This document shows, piece after piece, positions 6,332 to 52,972 of a stretch of DNA of 64,000 nucleotides. Below the pieces are notes generated by a model that saw nothing but the letters and a program-made list of their open reading frames with translations, was not told the origin of the DNA and did not search any database. The translations under genes were made by a program, and so were the position numbers. The DNA comes from an uncultured Methylomirabilota bacterium (GTDB lineage: Bacteria; Methylomirabilota; Methylomirabilia; Methylomirabilales; 2-02-FULL-66-22). How positions within the stretch are numbered: position 1 is the stretch's first letter; every line of letters starts with the position of its first letter. Where the stretch lies: the NCBI GenBank assembly GCA_963705305.1, contig OY970067.1:2336001-2400000 (forward strand). The letters are read 5' to 3'.

Positions 6332-7354
6332 ATGAAGAATGTCAGCCGGAGACAGTTTCTCACCCGTGGGCTTGGCGTTGCGGCGGCAGCCACTGCAGGT
6401 GTCACGGCACTCAACCTCGGCGAGCGCTCAGCCCGGGCCGCGGGTCAGCCCGTCGTGCTCAAACTCGGCCACGCGGACACGGCACTCCACCCGGGCCAGA
6501 CGGTTGCCACGCGGTTCGCGGAGCTGGTCAAGCAGCGCACCGGAGGGTCGGTCGAGGTCCGCGTCTACCCGGTCGGCCAGCTGGGCACCATGGCCAATGT
6601 CATCTCCGGCCTCTCGACCGGGATCGTGGACCTGGCCATGGAGACGACGGGGTTCCTCGAATCCTACTTTCCCCGCATCCAGGTGCTGGATCTGCCCTTC
6701 CTCTTCAAGGACGCCACCTCGGCCGAGCGACTGCTCGACGGCCCGATCGGTCAGGACCTGCTCAATGACATGCCGGCCAAGGGGATCTATGGGCTGACCT
6801 GGGGTCATTACGGCTGGCGCGAATCGGAGACGAACGTGCACCCCCTGAAGACGCCGGCGGATTTCAAGGGGCTCAAGATCCGGGTCCAACCCGGCGCGGT
6901 GTACGCCGCCATGTTCAAGGCGATTGATGCCGTTCCGGTCGTGCTCGACCTCTCGGAGCTCTACATCGCGCTTTCCCAGGGCACGGTCAACGGGTACGAG
7001 CTGCCCTTCCTGGCGGTCATCAGCACCAAGCTCGTGGAGGTGACCAAGTACGTCGGTCTCACCAACCACGTGTACAATGCCGGGGTGTTGATGGCGAGCA
7101 AGGTGAGGCTGGATGCCCTCGCCCCCAAAGAACAGGAGGTCATTCGCGAGACGGCGAAAGAGATCATGCCGTTCTGGCGCACGCTCATGGCCGAAAAGTC
7201 GCTGGAGGACCGCAAGATCTGCGAGAAGAGCGGCCTGGTTATCGATGAGATCGATTACCCGGCCTTCAAGAAGGCCATGCAGCCGGTCTACGCGGAATTC
7301 CGGCCCAAAATCGGCCCCGAGTTCATGGACCGGGTGATGAAGGCGGCGAGCTAG
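6332..7354 (+). CDS. dctP: TRAP transporter substrate-binding protein DctP with twin-arginine signal
   Basis: SRRQFL Tat motif, LKLGH, DLPFLF, DFKGLKIRV, ELYIALSQGTVNG, TNHVY. Confidence 0.92.
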   Translation: MKNVSRRQFLTRGLGVAAAATAGVTALNLGERSARAAGQPVVLKLGHADTALHPGQTVATRFAELVKQRTGGSVEVRVYPVGQLGTMANVISGLSTGIVDLAMETTGFLESYFPRIQVLDLPFLFKDATSAERLLDGPIGQDLLNDMPAKGIYGLTWGHYGWRESETNVHPLKTPADFKGLKIRVQPGAVYAAMFKAIDAVPVVLDLSELYIALSQGTVNGYELPFLAVISTKLVEVTKYVGLTNHVYNAGVLMASKVRLDALAPKEQEVIRETAKEIMPFWRTLMAEKSLEDRKICEKSGLVIDEIDYPAFKKAMQPVYAEFRPKIGPEFMDRVMKAAS

Positions 7355-7541
7355 CAGGCTGCCGAAAAAGGCCCATCTGCCGGGTACCCATCTGATGGGT
7401 GCCCATCCTTCGGATGGGTACCCCGCCCGCTCGCGCACTCGCTGCGGCGTACCAGAAGTACGCCTCACTCGGCCCTTTGCGGGCCGCCTTGCACCTGGGC
7501 CTTTTTGAGCAGCCTGGTCGGAGCGGGTTTTCAGCAGCCTG
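7355..7541. mobile_element. 187-bp MITE-like non-autonomous element
   Basis: Terminal inverted repeats CAGGCTGCCGAAAA / TTTTCAGCAGCCTG (13/14), CTAG on both sides (7351-7354, 7542-7545), internal palindromes, no credible gene. Confidence 0.8.
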
Positions 7542-41330: not shown

Positions 41331-41357
41331 CGCGCCGGGGGGAATCCCTGGCTCTGG

Positions 41358-41399
41358 AAAAATGAAGCGCCGGTCGGAGTCCGACCGGCGCTTTCTTTC
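41358..41399. terminator. Probable bidirectional intrinsic terminator
   Basis: Perfect 13-bp stem AAGCGCCGGTCGG-AGT-CCGACCGGCGCTT with T-rich 3' side and A-run 5' side between convergent genes. Confidence 0.8.
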
Positions 41400-41424
41400 A
41401 TCCTTGAACAGTCTGCCTGGATTG

Positions 41425-47747: not shown

Positions 47748-48821
47748 CTAGCGAGCAGGCGGGGCCGCGGCGGCGTCCAGTTGCTGCTGGAGGCGACGCT
47801 GGTTCTCCCACTCCTTGCGCTTGGCTTCGAGGTACTCCGATTTATCCAGATCGTGCAGCTGGAGCGGATACCGCTCCATCAACTCGGAGGCCCGAGTAAT
47901 GCGGGCCTCGAACCGGAGCGAGTCCGGGACGGCCTGCGTATCCAGGAGCGCTTCGAAGGCGAGGTAGTAGCGCATGATGTTGCGTTCGACCATCCCGCGC
48001 AGTCCCTGGACGTATTGGGGGGGGCCGCCCGGGCCAGCGTCCGTCCGGGTGAAGCCGACCTTGTCCCGTCCCGCGGTGGCGAGATAGATGGCGGTGGCCA
48101 GCTTGCTGGCGGCGCTCTGCACGTAAGACGTGCGCAGGGCCAGCACGGTCCTTCCCCGGATGCCGGCGGCAACCAGCTCAAGCCGGTGGGCCGTGATCCC
48201 GTACAGGCCGTTGAGCGCGCTGAGGGTGACCGTGAGGATGCCCTCGTCCGTCCTGCGAACCGCGAATTGGTAGGGCTGGGCGAAGGCTTCCGCGGGGCTC
48301 TGGTAGACCTTTCGTCCCAAATACAGGGTGAGCCGCGATTCGTGCCCCTCCCCTTGGTAGGTGCACGCTTTCACGTTCACGTCCAGTGGGAGGAACTCAC
48401 ACCAGCTGAAGGGGGCGGCGAGAGCCCTCGCGACGACATCGAAAGGATGGTTGATGATGGCGTGCATCTTAGCGGTCAACTGATCGTTGTGCTCTTCCGA
48501 CTGGATTTGGATGGGGGCGCCGAAGCGGCTGCGCTGGGCCGGGTCGCGGAGCTCCTGGTACCACCGCTGAAGGCGCGCCACACTGCCTTCAGCGGGTCGG
48601 GCCGTCAGAGGAAGCAAGGCCAGGAGACATACCAGGAAAGCCGACCGGCCCCGAGGTCGCCGGGGCGGCTGCCGGCGACCGCGGCGCGATCGGGGCTCGC
48701 GTGGTGCGATATCCTCGGCGGCGAACCGCGCAGGCGCACGGCCCTTCTGTTCGGCGGCGGTCGGCCCCGAAAGTACCCCGACTCCCTGCGGACCGGCGGC
48801 TTGCCGGTGGCCCGGGATCAT
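47748..48821 (-). CDS. Hypothetical exported protein (start uncertain)
   Basis: Signal-like FLVCLLALLPLTARPAEG followed by ~280 aa of globular sequence (WCEFLPLDVNVKAC, GRDKVGFT, GLRGMVERNIMRYYLA). Confidence 0.7.
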   Translation of the reverse strand: MIPGHRQAAGPQGVGVLSGPTAAEQKGRAPARFAAEDIAPREPRSRRGRRQPPRRPRGRSAFLVCLLALLPLTARPAEGSVARLQRWYQELRDPAQRSRFGAPIQIQSEEHNDQLTAKMHAIINHPFDVVARALAAPFSWCEFLPLDVNVKACTYQGEGHESRLTLYLGRKVYQSPAEAFAQPYQFAVRRTDEGILTVTLSALNGLYGITAHRLELVAAGIRGRTVLALRTSYVQSAASKLATAIYLATAGRDKVGFTRTDAGPGGPPQYVQGLRGMVERNIMRYYLAFEALLDTQAVPDSLRFEARITRASELMERYPLQLHDLDKSEYLEAKRKEWENQRRLQQQLDAAAAPPAR

Positions 48822-49017
48822 GCAGGACAAAATACCCGCAGCCGGCATCGCGCCCCTCCGAGGCGGTCCCCGGATCTTGCTTCCCGCCGGATCAGACGCT
48901 ATCCCCCGCGAGCGGGGGAAGTCAAGCCAGAAAACCCGGCGCCGGCCCCGCCCGTGTCGAGGCGCGTGGGCGCCGGTGCGGGTCCCCTGCGCCCCCCTCC
49001 TCACCGGCAAACCGTTC

Positions 49018-49046
49018 TTGACAAGCCGCCAACTTAGGCGTACTTT
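49018..49046 (+). promoter_or_regulatory. Putative sigma-70 promoter
   Basis: TTGACA-17 nt-TACTTT immediately 5' of the RNA candidate. Confidence 0.65.
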
Positions 49047-49051
49047 TCCGG

Positions 49052-49248
49052 TCCGAGTGGTCAGGCCCCCGGTGTGGAGGCGTGTCGGATGCCTCCCGCA
49101 ACGGGCTGGCCCGGCCATCAACTGCAGTCTCCGAATGTGCACGTCGGGGGGCGAGCGAATTCTCCCCCCATCGAAAATACAAGAGAGCGGGTCCGGTGGG
49201 CGTGTAACGCGGAGGCAGTGGTTGTCGGGGAAGCAGGCCGACCTCGGA
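49052..49248 (+). ncRNA. Candidate structured RNA, ~197 nt, family unassigned (6S-like rod or riboswitch-like leader)
   Basis: Nested long-range complementarity TCCGAG/CTCGGA, CCCCGG/TCGGGG, TGCCTCC/GGAGGCA, GCTGGCCCG/CGGGTCCGGT; bracketed by promoter and terminator. Confidence 0.6.
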
Positions 49249-49249
49249 G

Positions 49250-49293
49250 CGCCCCTTTGTGCCATGACGATGGCCCATGGGGCGATTTTTTTT
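49250..49293 (+). terminator. Intrinsic terminator
   Basis: CGCCCC..GCCAT-GACG-ATGGC..GGGGCG followed by A and T8. Confidence 0.75.
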
Positions 49294-49480
49294 ATCTGCA
49301 GGCTGGAGGCCAAGCCCCCGGTGCATGGGTGGGCGCGGTCGGGGCTTCCGCGCTTGTGCGGGGCGGCCGTCGCGGGAGATGCGACCGGCCCGGTGGGTGC
49401 GGGGGCCTTGGTCGGCGCCGCCCGATGGCGAGGCGGGCGGGGCTGGCGGCAGGGTTGATGCGGTGAGCGAAGCGGAAGCG

Positions 49481-50662
49481 ATGGACGTGCAGGCTCTTCG
49501 ACAGCGGCTCCGGGAGCTCGAGGCGCAGGTCCAGGCGCAGGGGCGCGAGATCCGTGCCCTGGAGCGGATCGAGGGACTGCAGGATCGCCAGCGGGAACTG
49601 GAGGAGGAGATCCACACCCTGCGGGAGCGGGTAGGGGAGCTGCATACCTTCCTGAACCTGAGCCAGGCCCTGTCCGCCACGCTGAACCTGGACGAGCTCT
49701 TCCGGCTGGCCCTCCACCTCATCGGGCGGTCCCTGCACGTCAACGCATATTCGATGATGCTGCTGGACGAGCGACGGGAGCGCCTGGTGGTCCGGGCGGC
49801 GTTCGGCCTCCCCGAGGTCGAGGGCGAGCCGCCCACCCTTCGATTGGGAGAGGGGATCTCCGGACTGGTGGCCCAGACCGGCCAGGCGATGCTGGTGCCG
49901 GACATCCGCAAGGAGCCGCGCTGCCTGGAGCAGCGGTGGTTCCGGCTGCCCTACGGATCCTTCATCTGTGTGCCGCTGCGGATCAAGGGGACTCAGGTGG
50001 TAGGGGTCCTGAATGCCCAGAAGCCGGATCCTCACGGATTCACCGCAAGCGACCTGGACCTGTTTCAGTCCGTGGCCACCACCGTGGCAGTGGCCCTGGA
50101 GAACGCCCAGCTGTTCCAGCGGACGAAGGAGCTGTCCAGCCGCGACGCCCTCACGGGCCTGTTCAATCGACGCCATTTCCAGGAGACATTGGAAAAAGAG
50201 GTGCAGCGCTCGGCCCGCTACCAGCGCGCATTCTCCCTGCTGATGGTGGATCTGGACGACTTCAAGCAGTACAACGACACCCACGGCCATCTCCAGGGGG
50301 ACGAGGTGCTGAAGTCGCTGGCCGCCCTGCTCCAGCGCACGACGCGCCGGGCGGACATCGTGGCGCGCTTCGGCGGGGAGGAGTTCGTTGTCCTGCTGCC
50401 GGAAATCAACAAGGCGCGGGCGGCCGCGGTGGCGGAGAAGATCCGGGCCGCGGTGGCGGAGCATCCCTTCCCCGGCCGGGAGACCCAGCCGGACGGCCGG
50501 ATCACCGTGACGATCGGAGTGGCGAGCTGCCCGGCAGACGCCAGGGACGCCCTGGTGCTGGTCGATCTGGCGGACCGGGCCATGTACTTGGGCAAAGAAC
50601 AGGGGGGAGACCGCGTCGAGGCTTCACCCGAGCCTCCTCCAAACGGAATGGGCGATCCGTAA
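49481..50662 (+). CDS. GAF-GGDEF diguanylate cyclase with N-terminal coiled coil
   Basis: GEGISGLVA, DALTGLFNRR, DLDDFKQYNDTHGH, I-site RRAD, GGEEF. Confidence 0.95.
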   Translation: MDVQALRQRLRELEAQVQAQGREIRALERIEGLQDRQRELEEEIHTLRERVGELHTFLNLSQALSATLNLDELFRLALHLIGRSLHVNAYSMMLLDERRERLVVRAAFGLPEVEGEPPTLRLGEGISGLVAQTGQAMLVPDIRKEPRCLEQRWFRLPYGSFICVPLRIKGTQVVGVLNAQKPDPHGFTASDLDLFQSVATTVAVALENAQLFQRTKELSSRDALTGLFNRRHFQETLEKEVQRSARYQRAFSLLMVDLDDFKQYNDTHGHLQGDEVLKSLAALLQRTTRRADIVARFGGEEFVVLLPEINKARAAAVAEKIRAAVAEHPFPGRETQPDGRITVTIGVASCPADARDALVLVDLADRAMYLGKEQGGDRVEASPEPPPNGMGDP

Positions 50663-50752
50663 GCGCCCCGGACGGGCCATGGACGGCCCCGCCCAGTTCG
50701 ATTTACGATGGAACACTAGATTCCCGCCAACAGTCTCTCGCAAAGGAGGAGA

Positions 50753-51142
50753 ATGCCAGTGGAAGAGAAGTTGGTGTCCGAACGGCGGCTCGCGCCTCGA
50801 TACCCGGCCGAGCACGAGGCCGAAGGAACATCGCCGAATGGGGGGATCAAGTTCCGGGGGCTCCTCCACGATCTGTCGGCGACCGGATGTCAACTCCTCC
50901 TGGACACACGCCTCCCGCCGGGTGACACCATCGAGCTCCAGTGCGATATCGCCGGAATCGGCGTGTGGCTCCGCGGCGAGGTGGTCTGGAGCAGCCCGAC
51001 CGGTCAGGGGTTCAACCACGGCGTGGTTTTGACCGGGTTCGGCTCGCAGGGGGACTCCCTGTTTTATCGGCTGTATATTCGGCGCATCGCGTCGCGCCAG
51101 ACAGGCTCGCTCGCAAGTTTGGATCGTCCCCGCCCCAATTGA
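50753..51142 (+). CDS. Single-domain PilZ protein
   Basis: RxxxR (ERRLAPR), DxSxxG (DLSATG), GEVVW; AGGAGGAG RBS. Confidence 0.88.
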   Translation: MPVEEKLVSERRLAPRYPAEHEAEGTSPNGGIKFRGLLHDLSATGCQLLLDTRLPPGDTIELQCDIAGIGVWLRGEVVWSSPTGQGFNHGVVLTGFGSQGDSLFYRLYIRRIASRQTGSLASLDRPRPN

Positions 51143-51345
51143 TGGGGAGGGGACCGCGGCGGGACGTGGACCCCTGTCCTCTTCGAGCCGGCCGGGATCC
51201 CCGCCGTCGTCCCCTTTTCTCTCCGCACCCTCCGCACCGTCCGTAGAGCGGACGAGTGCCGGATGGACCGTCAACCCGCCCGGAAGATCCGATCCAGCCG
51301 CTCACGATCCGCCTCCGGCAGGTCCGGAGGCCGCCGGGAAACGCT

Positions 51346-51374
51346 TTGACATTCCATCCTACGCCTCCTAGACT
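51346..51374 (+). promoter_or_regulatory. Putative sigma-70 promoter of the AAA+/vWA/tld cluster
   Basis: TTGACA-17 nt-TAGACT. Confidence 0.6.
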
Positions 51375-51466
51375 CGACCTGAAGCGGACCCCGGTCCGGC
51401 GGTTTCTGCGAGCGGCCCTCGAGCACCGGCGAGGGCTCTCGGTGTCTTTGGGGAGGGAAAAAGCGC

Positions 51467-52972
51467 ATGGTGAAGGGTAAATTGGAGCTGCGCCCGAAAA
51501 CGCTGGGAGAGCTCAGGCAGAGCGGATGGGGGCCGGGCCGGATGGCCGAACGCTCTGTTCGGGACGAGATGCGGGAGAACCTGCTCGGCAAGCTGGAGCG
51601 GGAAGAGTCCCTCTTTCCCGGGATCATCGGCTACGAGGATACGGTCGTCCCGCAGCTGGTCAACGCCGTCCTGTCGCGCCACCACATGGTCCTTCTGGGG
51701 CTGCGCGGGCAGGCCAAGAGCCGCATTCTGCGCAGCCTGGTGTCGCTGCTGGACGAGGACATCCCCGTGATCGCGGGCTGCGAGATCAACGACAACCCGT
51801 ACGTCCCGCTCTGCCGCGCCTGCCGGGAGCGAACGGCGGAGGAGGGAGATGGCACCCCCATCGCGTGGCTGCCCCGCGATCTCCGCTACGTGGAAAAGCT
51901 GGCCACCCCCGACGTCACCATCGCCGACATCATCGGCGACGTGGACCCCATCCGGGCCGCCCGGGGCGGCCTGGATCTCTCCAACGAGCTGACCATCCAC
52001 TACGGGCTGCTGCCCCGCGCCAACCGGGGGATCTTCGCCATCAACGAGCTGCCGGACCTGGCCGGGAAGATCCAGGTGGGCCTCTTCAACATCATGCAAG
52101 AGGGGGATGTCCAGATCAAAGGCTACCCCGTGCGATTGAAGTTGGACGTGGCTCTGGTGTTTTCGGCCAACCCCGAGGATTACACGGCGCGCGGGAAGAT
52201 CATCACGCCGCTGAAGGACCGCATCGGCTCCGAGATCCGGACCCACTATCCGGTCGACCTCGCCCAGGGGGTCGCCATCACGGCGCAGGAGGCCTGGATC
52301 CGGCGGCATCCCGACGGCCGGGCAGTCATCCCGGAGTTCATCCAGGAGGTGGTCGAGCAGGTGGCGTTCGCCGCGCGCGAGAGCAAGCATATCGACCGGC
52401 GCTCGGGCGTCAGCCAGCGCCTGCCCATCTCCTGTTTGGAGAACGTCGTGAGCAGCGCCGAGCGGCGCGCGGTGACGAACCGCGAGACCCGCATCGTCCC
52501 GCGGCCGTGCGACGTGTTCGCGGCCATGCCGTCCATCACGGGAAAGCTGGAGCTGGAGTACGAGGGGGAGATGAAGGGGGGCGAGGTCATCGCCAAGGCA
52601 TTGATCAAAGAGGCCATCGGCCGCGTGTTCGGCGCCCGGCTGGGCGGGGCCCCCGTCCGGGAGACGGTGGAGTGGTTCGACGCCGGCGGGGCGGTGAAGA
52701 TCGCGGACATGACCCCCGCCAAGGAGGCCCTGCGCTTCTTCGCGCAGGTCCCCGGCCTGGTGGAGATGACGGCGCTCCTGGGCGTTCCCGAGCGGGCCGA
52801 TCCCGCGCTCACGGTCTCGGCCTGCGAGTTCATCCTGGAAGGGCTGCACGTCCAGCAGAAGATCGACCGGACGGAGCAGCGGGGATTCGTCGGCACCCCC
52901 AAGGTGGAGCGGAAGCCGCAGGACGACATGCGAACCGGTCCCCCGGGGGGGCGGCGGAGGAGCTTCAACTAA
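51467..52972 (+). CDS. AAA+ ATPase (Mg-chelatase/MoxR-related)
   Basis: GLRGQAKS, EKLATPD, RANRGIFAINELPDL, SANPEDYT, PLKDR. Confidence 0.88.
   Translation: MVKGKLELRPKTLGELRQSGWGPGRMAERSVRDEMRENLLGKLEREESLFPGIIGYEDTVVPQLVNAVLSRHHMVLLGLRGQAKSRILRSLVSLLDEDIPVIAGCEINDNPYVPLCRACRERTAEEGDGTPIAWLPRDLRYVEKLATPDVTIADIIGDVDPIRAARGGLDLSNELTIHYGLLPRANRGIFAINELPDLAGKIQVGLFNIMQEGDVQIKGYPVRLKLDVALVFSANPEDYTARGKIITPLKDRIGSEIRTHYPVDLAQGVAITAQEAWIRRHPDGRAVIPEFIQEVVEQVAFAARESKHIDRRSGVSQRLPISCLENVVSSAERRAVTNRETRIVPRPCDVFAAMPSITGKLELEYEGEMKGGEVIAKALIKEAIGRVFGARLGGAPVRETVEWFDAGGAVKIADMTPAKEALRFFAQVPGLVEMTALLGVPERADPALTVSACEFILEGLHVQQKIDRTEQRGFVGTPKVERKPQDDMRTGPPGGRRRSFN

Follow-up and report, generated by a model that had tools for sequence, protein, structure and literature searches.

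Upstream of a diguanylate cyclase gene and a PilZ-domain gene in this uncultured Methylomirabilota genome lies a short noncoding stretch with the outward form of a complete transcription unit. This raises the question of whether the unit serves the two genes behind it as a leader, represents a small RNA gene that merely adjoins them, belongs to an RNA family that is already known, or is a by-product of a rearrangement. We assessed these readings across the window, meaning the whole stretch of 64,000 nucleotides that was analysed, and against the genome, its relatives, and Rfam. The organism itself is apparently known only from genome sequence.

Organization of the locus

The first-pass annotation had described a noncoding plus-strand unit with its own promoter and terminator, located 5' of a cyclase-PilZ gene pair. 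This description held, with both genes identified by Pfam, and the motifs and helix strings that had been named, including those of a proposed switch, were all found in place (TCCGAG 49052-57 and CTCGGA 49243-48, TGCCTCC 49090-96, GGAGGCG 49076-82, and GGAGGCA 49211-17). The unit begins with a sigma-70-type promoter, TTGACA-N17-TACTTT (49018..49046, plus strand; TTGACA at 49018-23 and TACTTT at 49041-46), which has the same TTGACA/TAnnnT shape as both conserved neighbouring promoters. It is followed by an RNA body of 197 nt (49052..49248, plus strand) that RNAfold predicts to be closed by TCCGAG pairing with CTCGGA. The intrinsic terminator (49249..49293, plus strand) has a hairpin that begins one base 3' of the body and comprises an outer stem (CGCCCC 49250-55 / GGGGCG 49279-84), an inner GCCAU-GACG-AUGGC hairpin, a single A, and a T8 run (49286-93), with the stem interrupted by an internal loop.

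A G-rich spacer (49294..49480, plus strand; 77% GC, GC skew +0.29) separates the terminator from the GGDEF start. It was noted that not one TA dinucleotide occurs in 186 nt of this spacer (49295-49480), which leaves no room for a TAnnnT -10 box. The GAF-GGDEF diguanylate cyclase gene (49481..50662, plus strand; Pfam GGDEF 1.6e-48, GAF_2 3.2e-22) starts at ATG 49481 or at an in-frame GTG at 49463, and it is followed by the PilZ-domain gene (50753..51142, plus strand; 129 aa, Pfam PilZ 9.1e-12). On the left side lies a divergent gene (47748-48704, minus strand) that matches no Pfam family and has the promoter TTGACT-N18-TAGCGT (48896..48925, minus strand). On the right side, a MoxR/ChlI-like ATPase gene (51467-52972) is preceded by the promoter TTGACA-N17-TAGACT (51346..51374, plus strand).

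The RNA region is noncoding by its codon-position GC, since the open frame at 49074-49466 showed values of 0.76/0.66/0.67 compared to approximately 0.7/0.45/0.87 in the neighbouring genes. A tblastx search of 48937-49480 against the genome for a pseudogene remnant returned only many weak, low-complexity Pro/Ala/Arg matches, most of them in the GC-rich spacer.

Promoter and terminator against the genome background

The two signals were compared with the background of the 5.65-Mb genome (66% GC, both strands). TTGACA-Nk-TAnnnT sites numbered 163 at k=17, 105 at k=18, and 34 at k=16, while each remaining spacing from 8 to 30 yielded only 4-16 sites. Judged against these control spacings, approximately 94% of the N17 sites exceed background, and approximately 19 of every 20 TTGACA-N17-TAnnnT sites are real promoters. 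The -10 hexamer TACTTT agrees with TATAAT at three of six positions.

Runs of at least eight T were encountered 25 times in the genome and runs of at least seven T 121 times (both strands). The 50 nt upstream folded at -25 kcal/mol or better in only 12 of the 121, among them the terminator at 49249..49293. When the limit on the upstream fold was relaxed to -20 kcal/mol, 22 such runs qualified, six of which had a TTGACN-N16-18-TAnnnT promoter within 450 nt; promoter-terminator mini-units are therefore a real feature of this genome. Two of the six proved to be small protein genes (ArsR-like and SWIB-like), and the rest resemble small RNA units. Both the promoter and the terminator of the candidate are well above chance. 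The terminator also looks efficient, with its T8 run and a modelled contribution of approximately 22 kcal/mol. It was noted that a strict scanner reported no promoter or terminator for the unit, and no promoter-like site at all in 48000-50500.

Predicted fold of the RNA body

The minimum free energy of the RNA body was -98.4 to -100.3 kcal/mol (RNAfold). In both the MFE and the centroid structures, a side hairpin branches off at a three-way junction near the base, and the apical multiloop includes approximately 30 unpaired nt in an asymmetric arrangement. The basal stem, with 13 predicted base pairs, is formed by the first and last bases of the body (pair probabilities 0.39-1.0). In the predicted side hairpin (49069-49104), GGAGGCGU pairs with AUGCCUCC, and a long irregular arm is predicted to be capped by GGGGGG..CCCCCC. 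The only A/U-rich segment of the body (approximately 49169-49186) is predicted to be unpaired.

Against shuffled sequences, the plus strand of the unit (249 nt) folded at -121.7 kcal/mol with a z of -3.44 (0 of 200 shuffles as good), compared to a z of -1.38 for the minus strand of the same region, and the 201-nt body gave a z of -3.08 (1 of 200 shuffles as good). Because a shuffle null flatters native DNA, the values of -3.08 to -3.44 are to be read against native windows, and in the identical test 3 of 52 random native 200-nt windows from the same 64 kb reached a z of -3.0 or lower. By composition-regressed MFE, the body ranked 132 of 3190 windows. The fold stability is thus in the top 4-6% of native 200-nt windows, which is real yet unexceptional. 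It is because a promoter, a terminator, and a fold closing exactly between them occur together that the unit is probably transcribed.

Switch and attenuator readings

We then considered whether the RNA could control its own terminator. A conformational switch had been proposed in which TGCCTCC exchanges between two mutually exclusive partners. Both partner strings exist, but when the distal TGCCTCC/GGAGGCA pairing was forced, the structure reached only -83.5 kcal/mol compared to -98.4 kcal/mol, a penalty of 14.9 kcal/mol, and its ensemble probability was 0.0; the local GGAGGCG/TGCCTCC hairpin had pair probabilities of 0.4-1.0. The switch can therefore be set aside. When the terminator pairs were forbidden, the energy rose from -121.3 to -99.2 kcal/mol, the fold of the body did not change, and no replacement pairing formed, so that constrained folding yielded no antiterminator competing with the terminator. 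With no antiterminator and no realistic alternative pairing, the terminator appears to be unconditional.

The layout of the locus does have the order expected of a leader. The terminator ends at 49293, and the start codon of the GAF-GGDEF gene on the same strand (49463 or 49481) lies 170-190 nt beyond it. No c-di-GMP-I, c-di-GMP-II, or other Rfam riboswitch matched 48900-49400 at E <= 10. The suggestion of a riboswitch-like attenuator failed on both counts, as there was neither a riboswitch match nor any pairing to take the place of the forbidden terminator.

A terminator without an RNA switch could nevertheless be regulated if a factor or ribosomes, and not the RNA itself, controlled its read-through. 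In a ribosome version of this reading, translation from AUG 49089 would run through the terminator to a TGA overlapping the in-frame GTG 49463 of the cyclase. This version draws on a GGAGG located 8 nt before AUG 49089 (49076-91), a side hairpin that pairs the SD with an anti-SD, an open frame spanning 49074-49466 in which stop and start codons overlap as GTGA (49463-66), and the observation, made by eye, that both possible starts of the cyclase lack a good ribosome-binding site. In a polymerase version, a put/EAR-like RNA would render RNA polymerase resistant to the terminator, and a structured RNA between a promoter and an unconditional terminator is, by analogy, the anatomy of processive antitermination. 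However, the open frame lacks a coding signature (codon-position GC 0.76/0.66/0.67), and by an estimate from base composition, a frame of this length would arise by chance in approximately 9% of frames at this GC content, with all three plus-strand frames being long. The hairpin holding the SD had pair probabilities of 0.4-1.0, no antitermination RNA in Rfam matched, and the region is not conserved. A regulated attenuator of this type is accordingly quite improbable in our assessment. A newly evolved leader that gates c-di-GMP synthesis through controlled read-through, whether by ribosomes or by RNA polymerase, also strikes us as improbable; if true, an attenuation device would have been built de novo at the junction created by a gene relocation.

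Known RNA families

Across the whole 64-kb window, no Rfam family was matched at gathering thresholds. At E <= 10, the interval 48900-49400 returned only two chance-level matches, both to unrelated sRNA families: Bp1_162 on the minus strand (E 0.25; 21.9 bits, cut-off 50) and a nematode sRNA (E 1.2; 16.6 bits). The first-pass annotation had considered the RNA as a divergent 6S RNA with some likeness to SRP RNA, and had asked whether canonical ssrS and ffs genes exist elsewhere. Both do, with the 6S RNA at C1:4757152-4757341 (87.2 bits, RF00013 gathering threshold 46.4) and the SRP RNA (RF00169) at C1:1355410-1355509 (68.9 bits), while the candidate itself matched neither 6S RNA, even at E <= 10, nor SRP RNA.

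A divergent member of a known family, such as a second 6S RNA, an SRP-related RNA, a c-di-GMP or other riboswitch, or a Y RNA, was suggested by the earlier arguments of a length of approximately 200 nt, paired ends, and a position before c-di-GMP genes. These are outweighed by the missing Rfam matches, by the canonical 6S and SRP RNAs that lie elsewhere, and by a covariance model of the candidate that found no second match in the genome. The predicted structure, with its three-way junction and apical multiloop, also has no single central bubble, and for a Y RNA both the tRNA-like module and the Ro protein were missing. This reading is largely refuted and scarcely credible, and the divergent 6S, SRP, and riboswitch readings can be dropped.

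Search for relatives of the RNA

We sought relatives of the RNA by sequence and by structure. A blastn search of 49018-49295 in 60 relatives recovered only fragments of 28 and 32 nt, and a search of 48560-49480 in 20 congeners, which are distant enough that orthologous proteins are 54-78% identical, recovered only fragments of 21-99 nt. One fragment, from the congener G020, falls in the conserved region upstream of the divergent gene and outside the RNA. As a positive control, the same blastn recovered 6S RNA in 17 of the 20 congeners at 79-87% identity, and the three congeners lacking a 6S match have genomes that are 68-82% complete.

The covariance model was built from a single sequence (201 positions, 71 pairs) and has limited reach accordingly. 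In the 20 congeners it recovered only the RNA of this genome itself, with the next best match at E 0.79, and in 65 genomes of the order (the same 20 congeners and 45 others) as well as in a 150-genome phylum sample it recovered only the self-match. When run without filters over 17 syntenic or paralog loci (75.6 kb), its best score was 15.6 bits (E 0.067), and none of the matches lay at the leader position. Homologs of the RNA were thus found in none of 215 other genomes (20 congeners, 45 of the order, and 150 of the phylum sample).

Other collections gave the same picture. No match to 48945-49480 was found in plasmid and phage collections (blastn), and neither blastn nor the covariance model found a second copy of the RNA within this genome. 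When metagenomes were scanned for exact occurrences of a 21-mer of the unpaired stretch, one match was returned, in an AT-rich marine contig with dissimilar flanks, which we regard as chance. Nothing similar was found upstream of a second cyclase copy in G020. A protein search with the cyclase across genome contigs returned 80 loci, the best being 40% identical over most of the protein, and none was useful for synteny. Higher identity among these 80 loci was confined to the GGDEF domain. A literature search on Methylomirabilis small RNAs and transcriptomes yielded nothing relevant, and among the papers listed for diguanylate cyclase leader RNAs, terminators, and sRNAs we found no such unit described.

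The candidate had also been put forward as a new sRNA class, which would require further members; the 215 other genomes and the other collections that we searched supplied none. With no homolog, there is likewise no covariation, and nothing shows selection on the RNA. Its orphan status weakens the case for a conserved function, yet leaves room for the RNA to be functional. Another promoter-terminator unit in the same genome (C1:1755385-1755585) likewise had no full-length match in the 20 congeners.

Protein partners and possible targets

An alternative is that the unit is an independent gene for a trans-acting or protein-binding sRNA that merely adjoins the cyclase, with the rod protecting both ends of the RNA. 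In one version of this reading, the A/U-rich stretch at approximately 49169-49186 or the C-rich loops may contact targets or a protein. An sRNA gene would have just such a complete promoter and unconditional terminator, the bases directly 5' of the terminator pair with the 5' end of the RNA, and the predicted fold leaves the only A/U-rich segment unpaired. As the unit at C1:1755385-1755585 illustrates, orphan units are also not unusual in this genome.

The usual partners of such RNAs were not found. In the 98.9%-complete genome, there were no matches to Hfq (PF17209), for which a control search was positive in 5 of 14 named genomes, none to CsrA (PF02599), and none to Ro/TROVE (PF05731), so that trans-acting or sponge RNAs would lack their usual partners here. 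An Hfq-dependent trans-acting sRNA would fit the promoter and the U-tailed Rho-independent terminator, but it was rejected since Hfq was not found. A sponge of the CsrB/RsmZ type was ruled against by the missing CsrA and by the presence of only four GGA motifs in the RNA body, mostly within predicted stems (counted by eye). A Y RNA or YrlA was rejected as well, in that no Ro protein was found and ARAGORN found no tRNA-like module over 48800-49500.

Searches for base-pairing targets were similarly unrewarding. Exact complements to 49166-49200 reached 10-13 nt genome-wide and were generic and GC-rich, with none at an obvious ribosome-binding site; complements to the A/U-rich core were 12 nt at most, with none at a recognisable start site. 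The independent sRNA is thus opposed by the three missing proteins, by the lack of any complementarity in the genome beyond 12-13 nt, the longest being generic GC-rich matches, by the lack of a homolog and hence of covariation, and by a fold that is merely in the top 4-6% of native windows. We consider it possible, though rather unlikely.

Gene relocation and insertion borders

We examined how the cyclase gene came to its present position. Its orthologs (54-75% identity, tblastn) were found at nine loci, and in six of these a sigma-70-family gene precedes the cyclase, directly in four, at a distance of approximately 130 nt in a fifth, and with a small gene inserted between them in the sixth. 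A REC-HD-GYP gene follows the cyclase ortholog in five of the nine. In the genome studied here, the sigma ortholog (C1:3948278-3949132, 78% identity) is followed approximately 30 nt later by the REC-HD-GYP gene with no cyclase between them. As the sigma gene stands directly before REC-HD-GYP in this way, the cyclase has left an ancestral sigma-GGDEF-HD-GYP operon.

The new site could be delimited by comparison with G017, the one congener that keeps both flanking genes, in which the divergent gene and the ATPase gene lie back to back. The left side of the G017 locus matches the window up to 48935, and the match resumes with GGCGGAAACGCTTTGACATTCC..TAGACT, corresponding to window positions 51337-51374, so that 48936-51336 represents approximately 2.4 kb of lineage-specific DNA. 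This insertion (48936..51336, plus strand) comprises 80 nt of GC-rich sequence, the promoter, the RNA, the terminator, the spacer, the GAF-GGDEF and PilZ genes, and a tail. It is flanked by GAAAAC on the left and GGAAAC on the right, compared to a single GGAAAC in G017, and the direction of the event at this junction is read from that one 70%-complete genome. The last conserved sequence on the left is the promoter of the divergent gene, whose motif AGACGCTA..AAGTCAAG is common to the upstream regions of five orthologs. The first conserved sequence on the right is the promoter of the ATPase gene, which is nearly identical in G017.

The RNA unit therefore forms the 5' edge of the approximately 2.4-kb insertion. 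The cyclase aligns with its orthologs from a point within about ten codons of the gene start, which places the DNA upstream of approximately 49470, including the RNA, outside the ancestry that could be traced. For the PilZ gene, only paralogs of 45-57% identity were found in the genus and in this genome.

A MITE or other repeated mobile element was also considered and rejected on two grounds. The DNA is single copy, and for the one inverted repeat that brackets the unit (48932-59 / 49429-56, 79% over 28 nt), 20 other pairs at least as good occur within the same 2.8 kb. A blastn-short search of 48700-51480 against the genome returned only three matches of 21-24 nt, all within the GGDEF coding region.

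This position exactly at the edge of lineage-specific DNA suits a further reading, in which the unit is a functionless by-product of the rearrangement, its promoter-like and terminator-like sequences either came in with the inserted DNA or formed at the junction, and its fold is what GC-rich DNA produces. Such an origin agrees with the absence of the RNA from all 215 other genomes when the same blastn recovered 6S RNA in 17 of 20 congeners, with a fold stability inside the native background, and with the lack of an encoded switch. Yet a near-consensus promoter and a top-12 terminator, 240 nt apart on the same strand with a fold closing between them, are unlikely as junk, and the relocated cyclase needs some promoter. 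We judge a functionless origin to be unlikely.

A proposed leader with a leaky terminator

The spacer without a -10 box, together with the lack of any other visible plus-strand promoter, makes the unit most likely the leader of dgc-pilZ. The reading that we favor, while holding it tentatively, is that the unit may well be a lineage-specific leader of the relocated gene pair, in which a strong promoter is followed by an unconditional but leaky terminator and a short RNA is the main product.

According to this leader model, the insertion would have brought the cyclase and PilZ genes to the interval that separates two divergent promoters. The relocated cyclase would have lost its old promoter, and the TTGACA promoter at 49018 would now serve dgc-pilZ. 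Transcription would start at approximately 49052 from this consensus-like sigma-70 promoter, the first approximately 197 nt would fold back such that the 5' end pairs with bases just 5' of the terminator, and most transcripts would stop at approximately 49290 to give an RNA of approximately 240 nt. A small read-through fraction would then provide low-level expression of the cyclase and the PilZ protein. Transcription itself, the position of the transcript end, the read-through into the cyclase, and a body that works without a ligand or partner are inferred; the sequence elements, their genome-wide rarity, the missing homologs, the relocation, and the lack of an encoded switch are observed.

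Several considerations weigh against the leader reading. Read-through may be too low to matter, given how efficient the terminator looks in the folding model, and the cyclase promoter may belong to another, unrecognised sigma factor. The 170-190 nt from the terminator to the start codon is long for an attenuator, and a plain attenuator needs no folded body of 197 nt.

Comparison with known systems

Terminated leaders that persist as small RNAs are known from the Listeria SreA and SreB riboswitch RNAs. The candidate resembles attenuator leaders in the order of promoter, structured RNA, intrinsic terminator, and gene on one strand, in that no other promoter is visible before the gene, and in that a short terminated RNA is the predicted main product. 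It differs from them in lacking a terminator/antiterminator alternative, a known aptamer, and conservation, and in the 170-190 nt that separate the terminator from the start.

The likeness to 6S RNA (RF00013) includes the length of approximately 200 nt, the largely double-stranded form with paired ends, and the possession of a promoter and a terminator. However, the candidate fails the family model and was found in none of the 20 congeners, compared to 17 of 20 for the real 6S RNA, and it is predicted to have a three-way junction and an apical multiloop where 6S RNA forms a single rod with a large central bubble.

The processive antitermination RNAs, HK022 put and Bacillus EAR, share with the candidate a structured RNA right after the promoter and then a terminator without a competing structure. 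No match by sequence or model was found, and the candidate is much larger than put.

Orphan bacterial sRNA genes are comparable as intergenic, noncoding promoter-to-terminator units of 100-250 nt that occur in one lineage, and three other such units were found in this genome. The candidate stands apart from them in its physical tie to a relocated gene pair, and in that no Hfq or CsrA and no standout target were found for it. The unit is probably a leader or an orphan sRNA of recent origin and not a new RNA class. If it is transcribed as predicted, it would provide a dated example of a relocated gene acquiring its expression signals, and would bear on the birth of both leaders and orphan sRNAs.

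Genomic context of the cyclase gene

Among the congeners, the operon common to the loci carrying orthologs of the GAF-GGDEF cyclase gene (L090-L094) comprises a sigma-70-family factor, the cyclase, and a REC-HD-GYP phosphodiesterase. The sigma factor and HD-GYP genes are retained in the source genome outside the window, at positions 3948278-3950166 of its contig (C1) with a gap of about 30 nt between them, and the cyclase has moved and now lies 1.56 Mb from this pair. It was also noted that one congener (G015, L090) carries a small gene inserted at the sigma-cyclase junction and bounded by GTGTAACGTG-type repeats.

Two conserved sigma-70-type promoters, TTGACT-N18-TAGCGT (window 48896-48925, minus strand) and TTGACA-N17-TAGACT (window 51346-51374, plus strand), stand back to back in the congener G017 and are separated by the insertion in the source genome. 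Because these promoters show TAGCGT and TAGACT, the -10 boxes of the lineage read TAnnnT. The spacer preceding the cyclase start (window 49294-49480) was found to be 77% GC, with a strongly G-rich coding strand (GC skew +0.29), numerous GGG/GGGG runs and no TA dinucleotide, and is possibly a G-quadruplex-prone 5' region.

Other structured and promoter-terminator elements

Among 200-nt windows across the 64 kb, over-folding was greatest at two plus-strand sites: 7350-7500, a nested palindrome directly 3' of a stop codon (GGGTACCCATC..GATGGGTACCC within CAGGCTGCCGAAAAAGGCCC..GGGCCTTTTTGAGCAGCCTG), and 41340-41400, where TTTCTTTC comes after a clean GC hairpin. Both are more stably folded than the studied RNA, and each resembles a terminator or an intergenic palindrome.

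Besides the studied unit, the source genome contains three further mini-units in which a TTGACA-type promoter is followed 134-176 nt downstream by a strong hairpin and T7: L149:136-336 (C1:1755385-1755585, minus), L150 (C1, about 3117750-3117900, minus) and L151 (C1, about 4504450-4504620, plus). None of the three matched Rfam. A full-length match to L149 was not found among 20 congeners, and L151 includes a 20-codon ORF preceded by a GGGGG box.

More distant cyclase homologs in G010 and G005 (54% identity, tblastn) have in common a non-coding leader of approximately 250 nt that is conserved, very rich in GC and contains CCCCCTGTCGGCCCCCTTTACACTCC (L097:1237-1491, plus; L098:2580-2835, minus). 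Compared with the studied RNA, this leader shows no sequence relationship, and it could be a conserved leader element in its own right.
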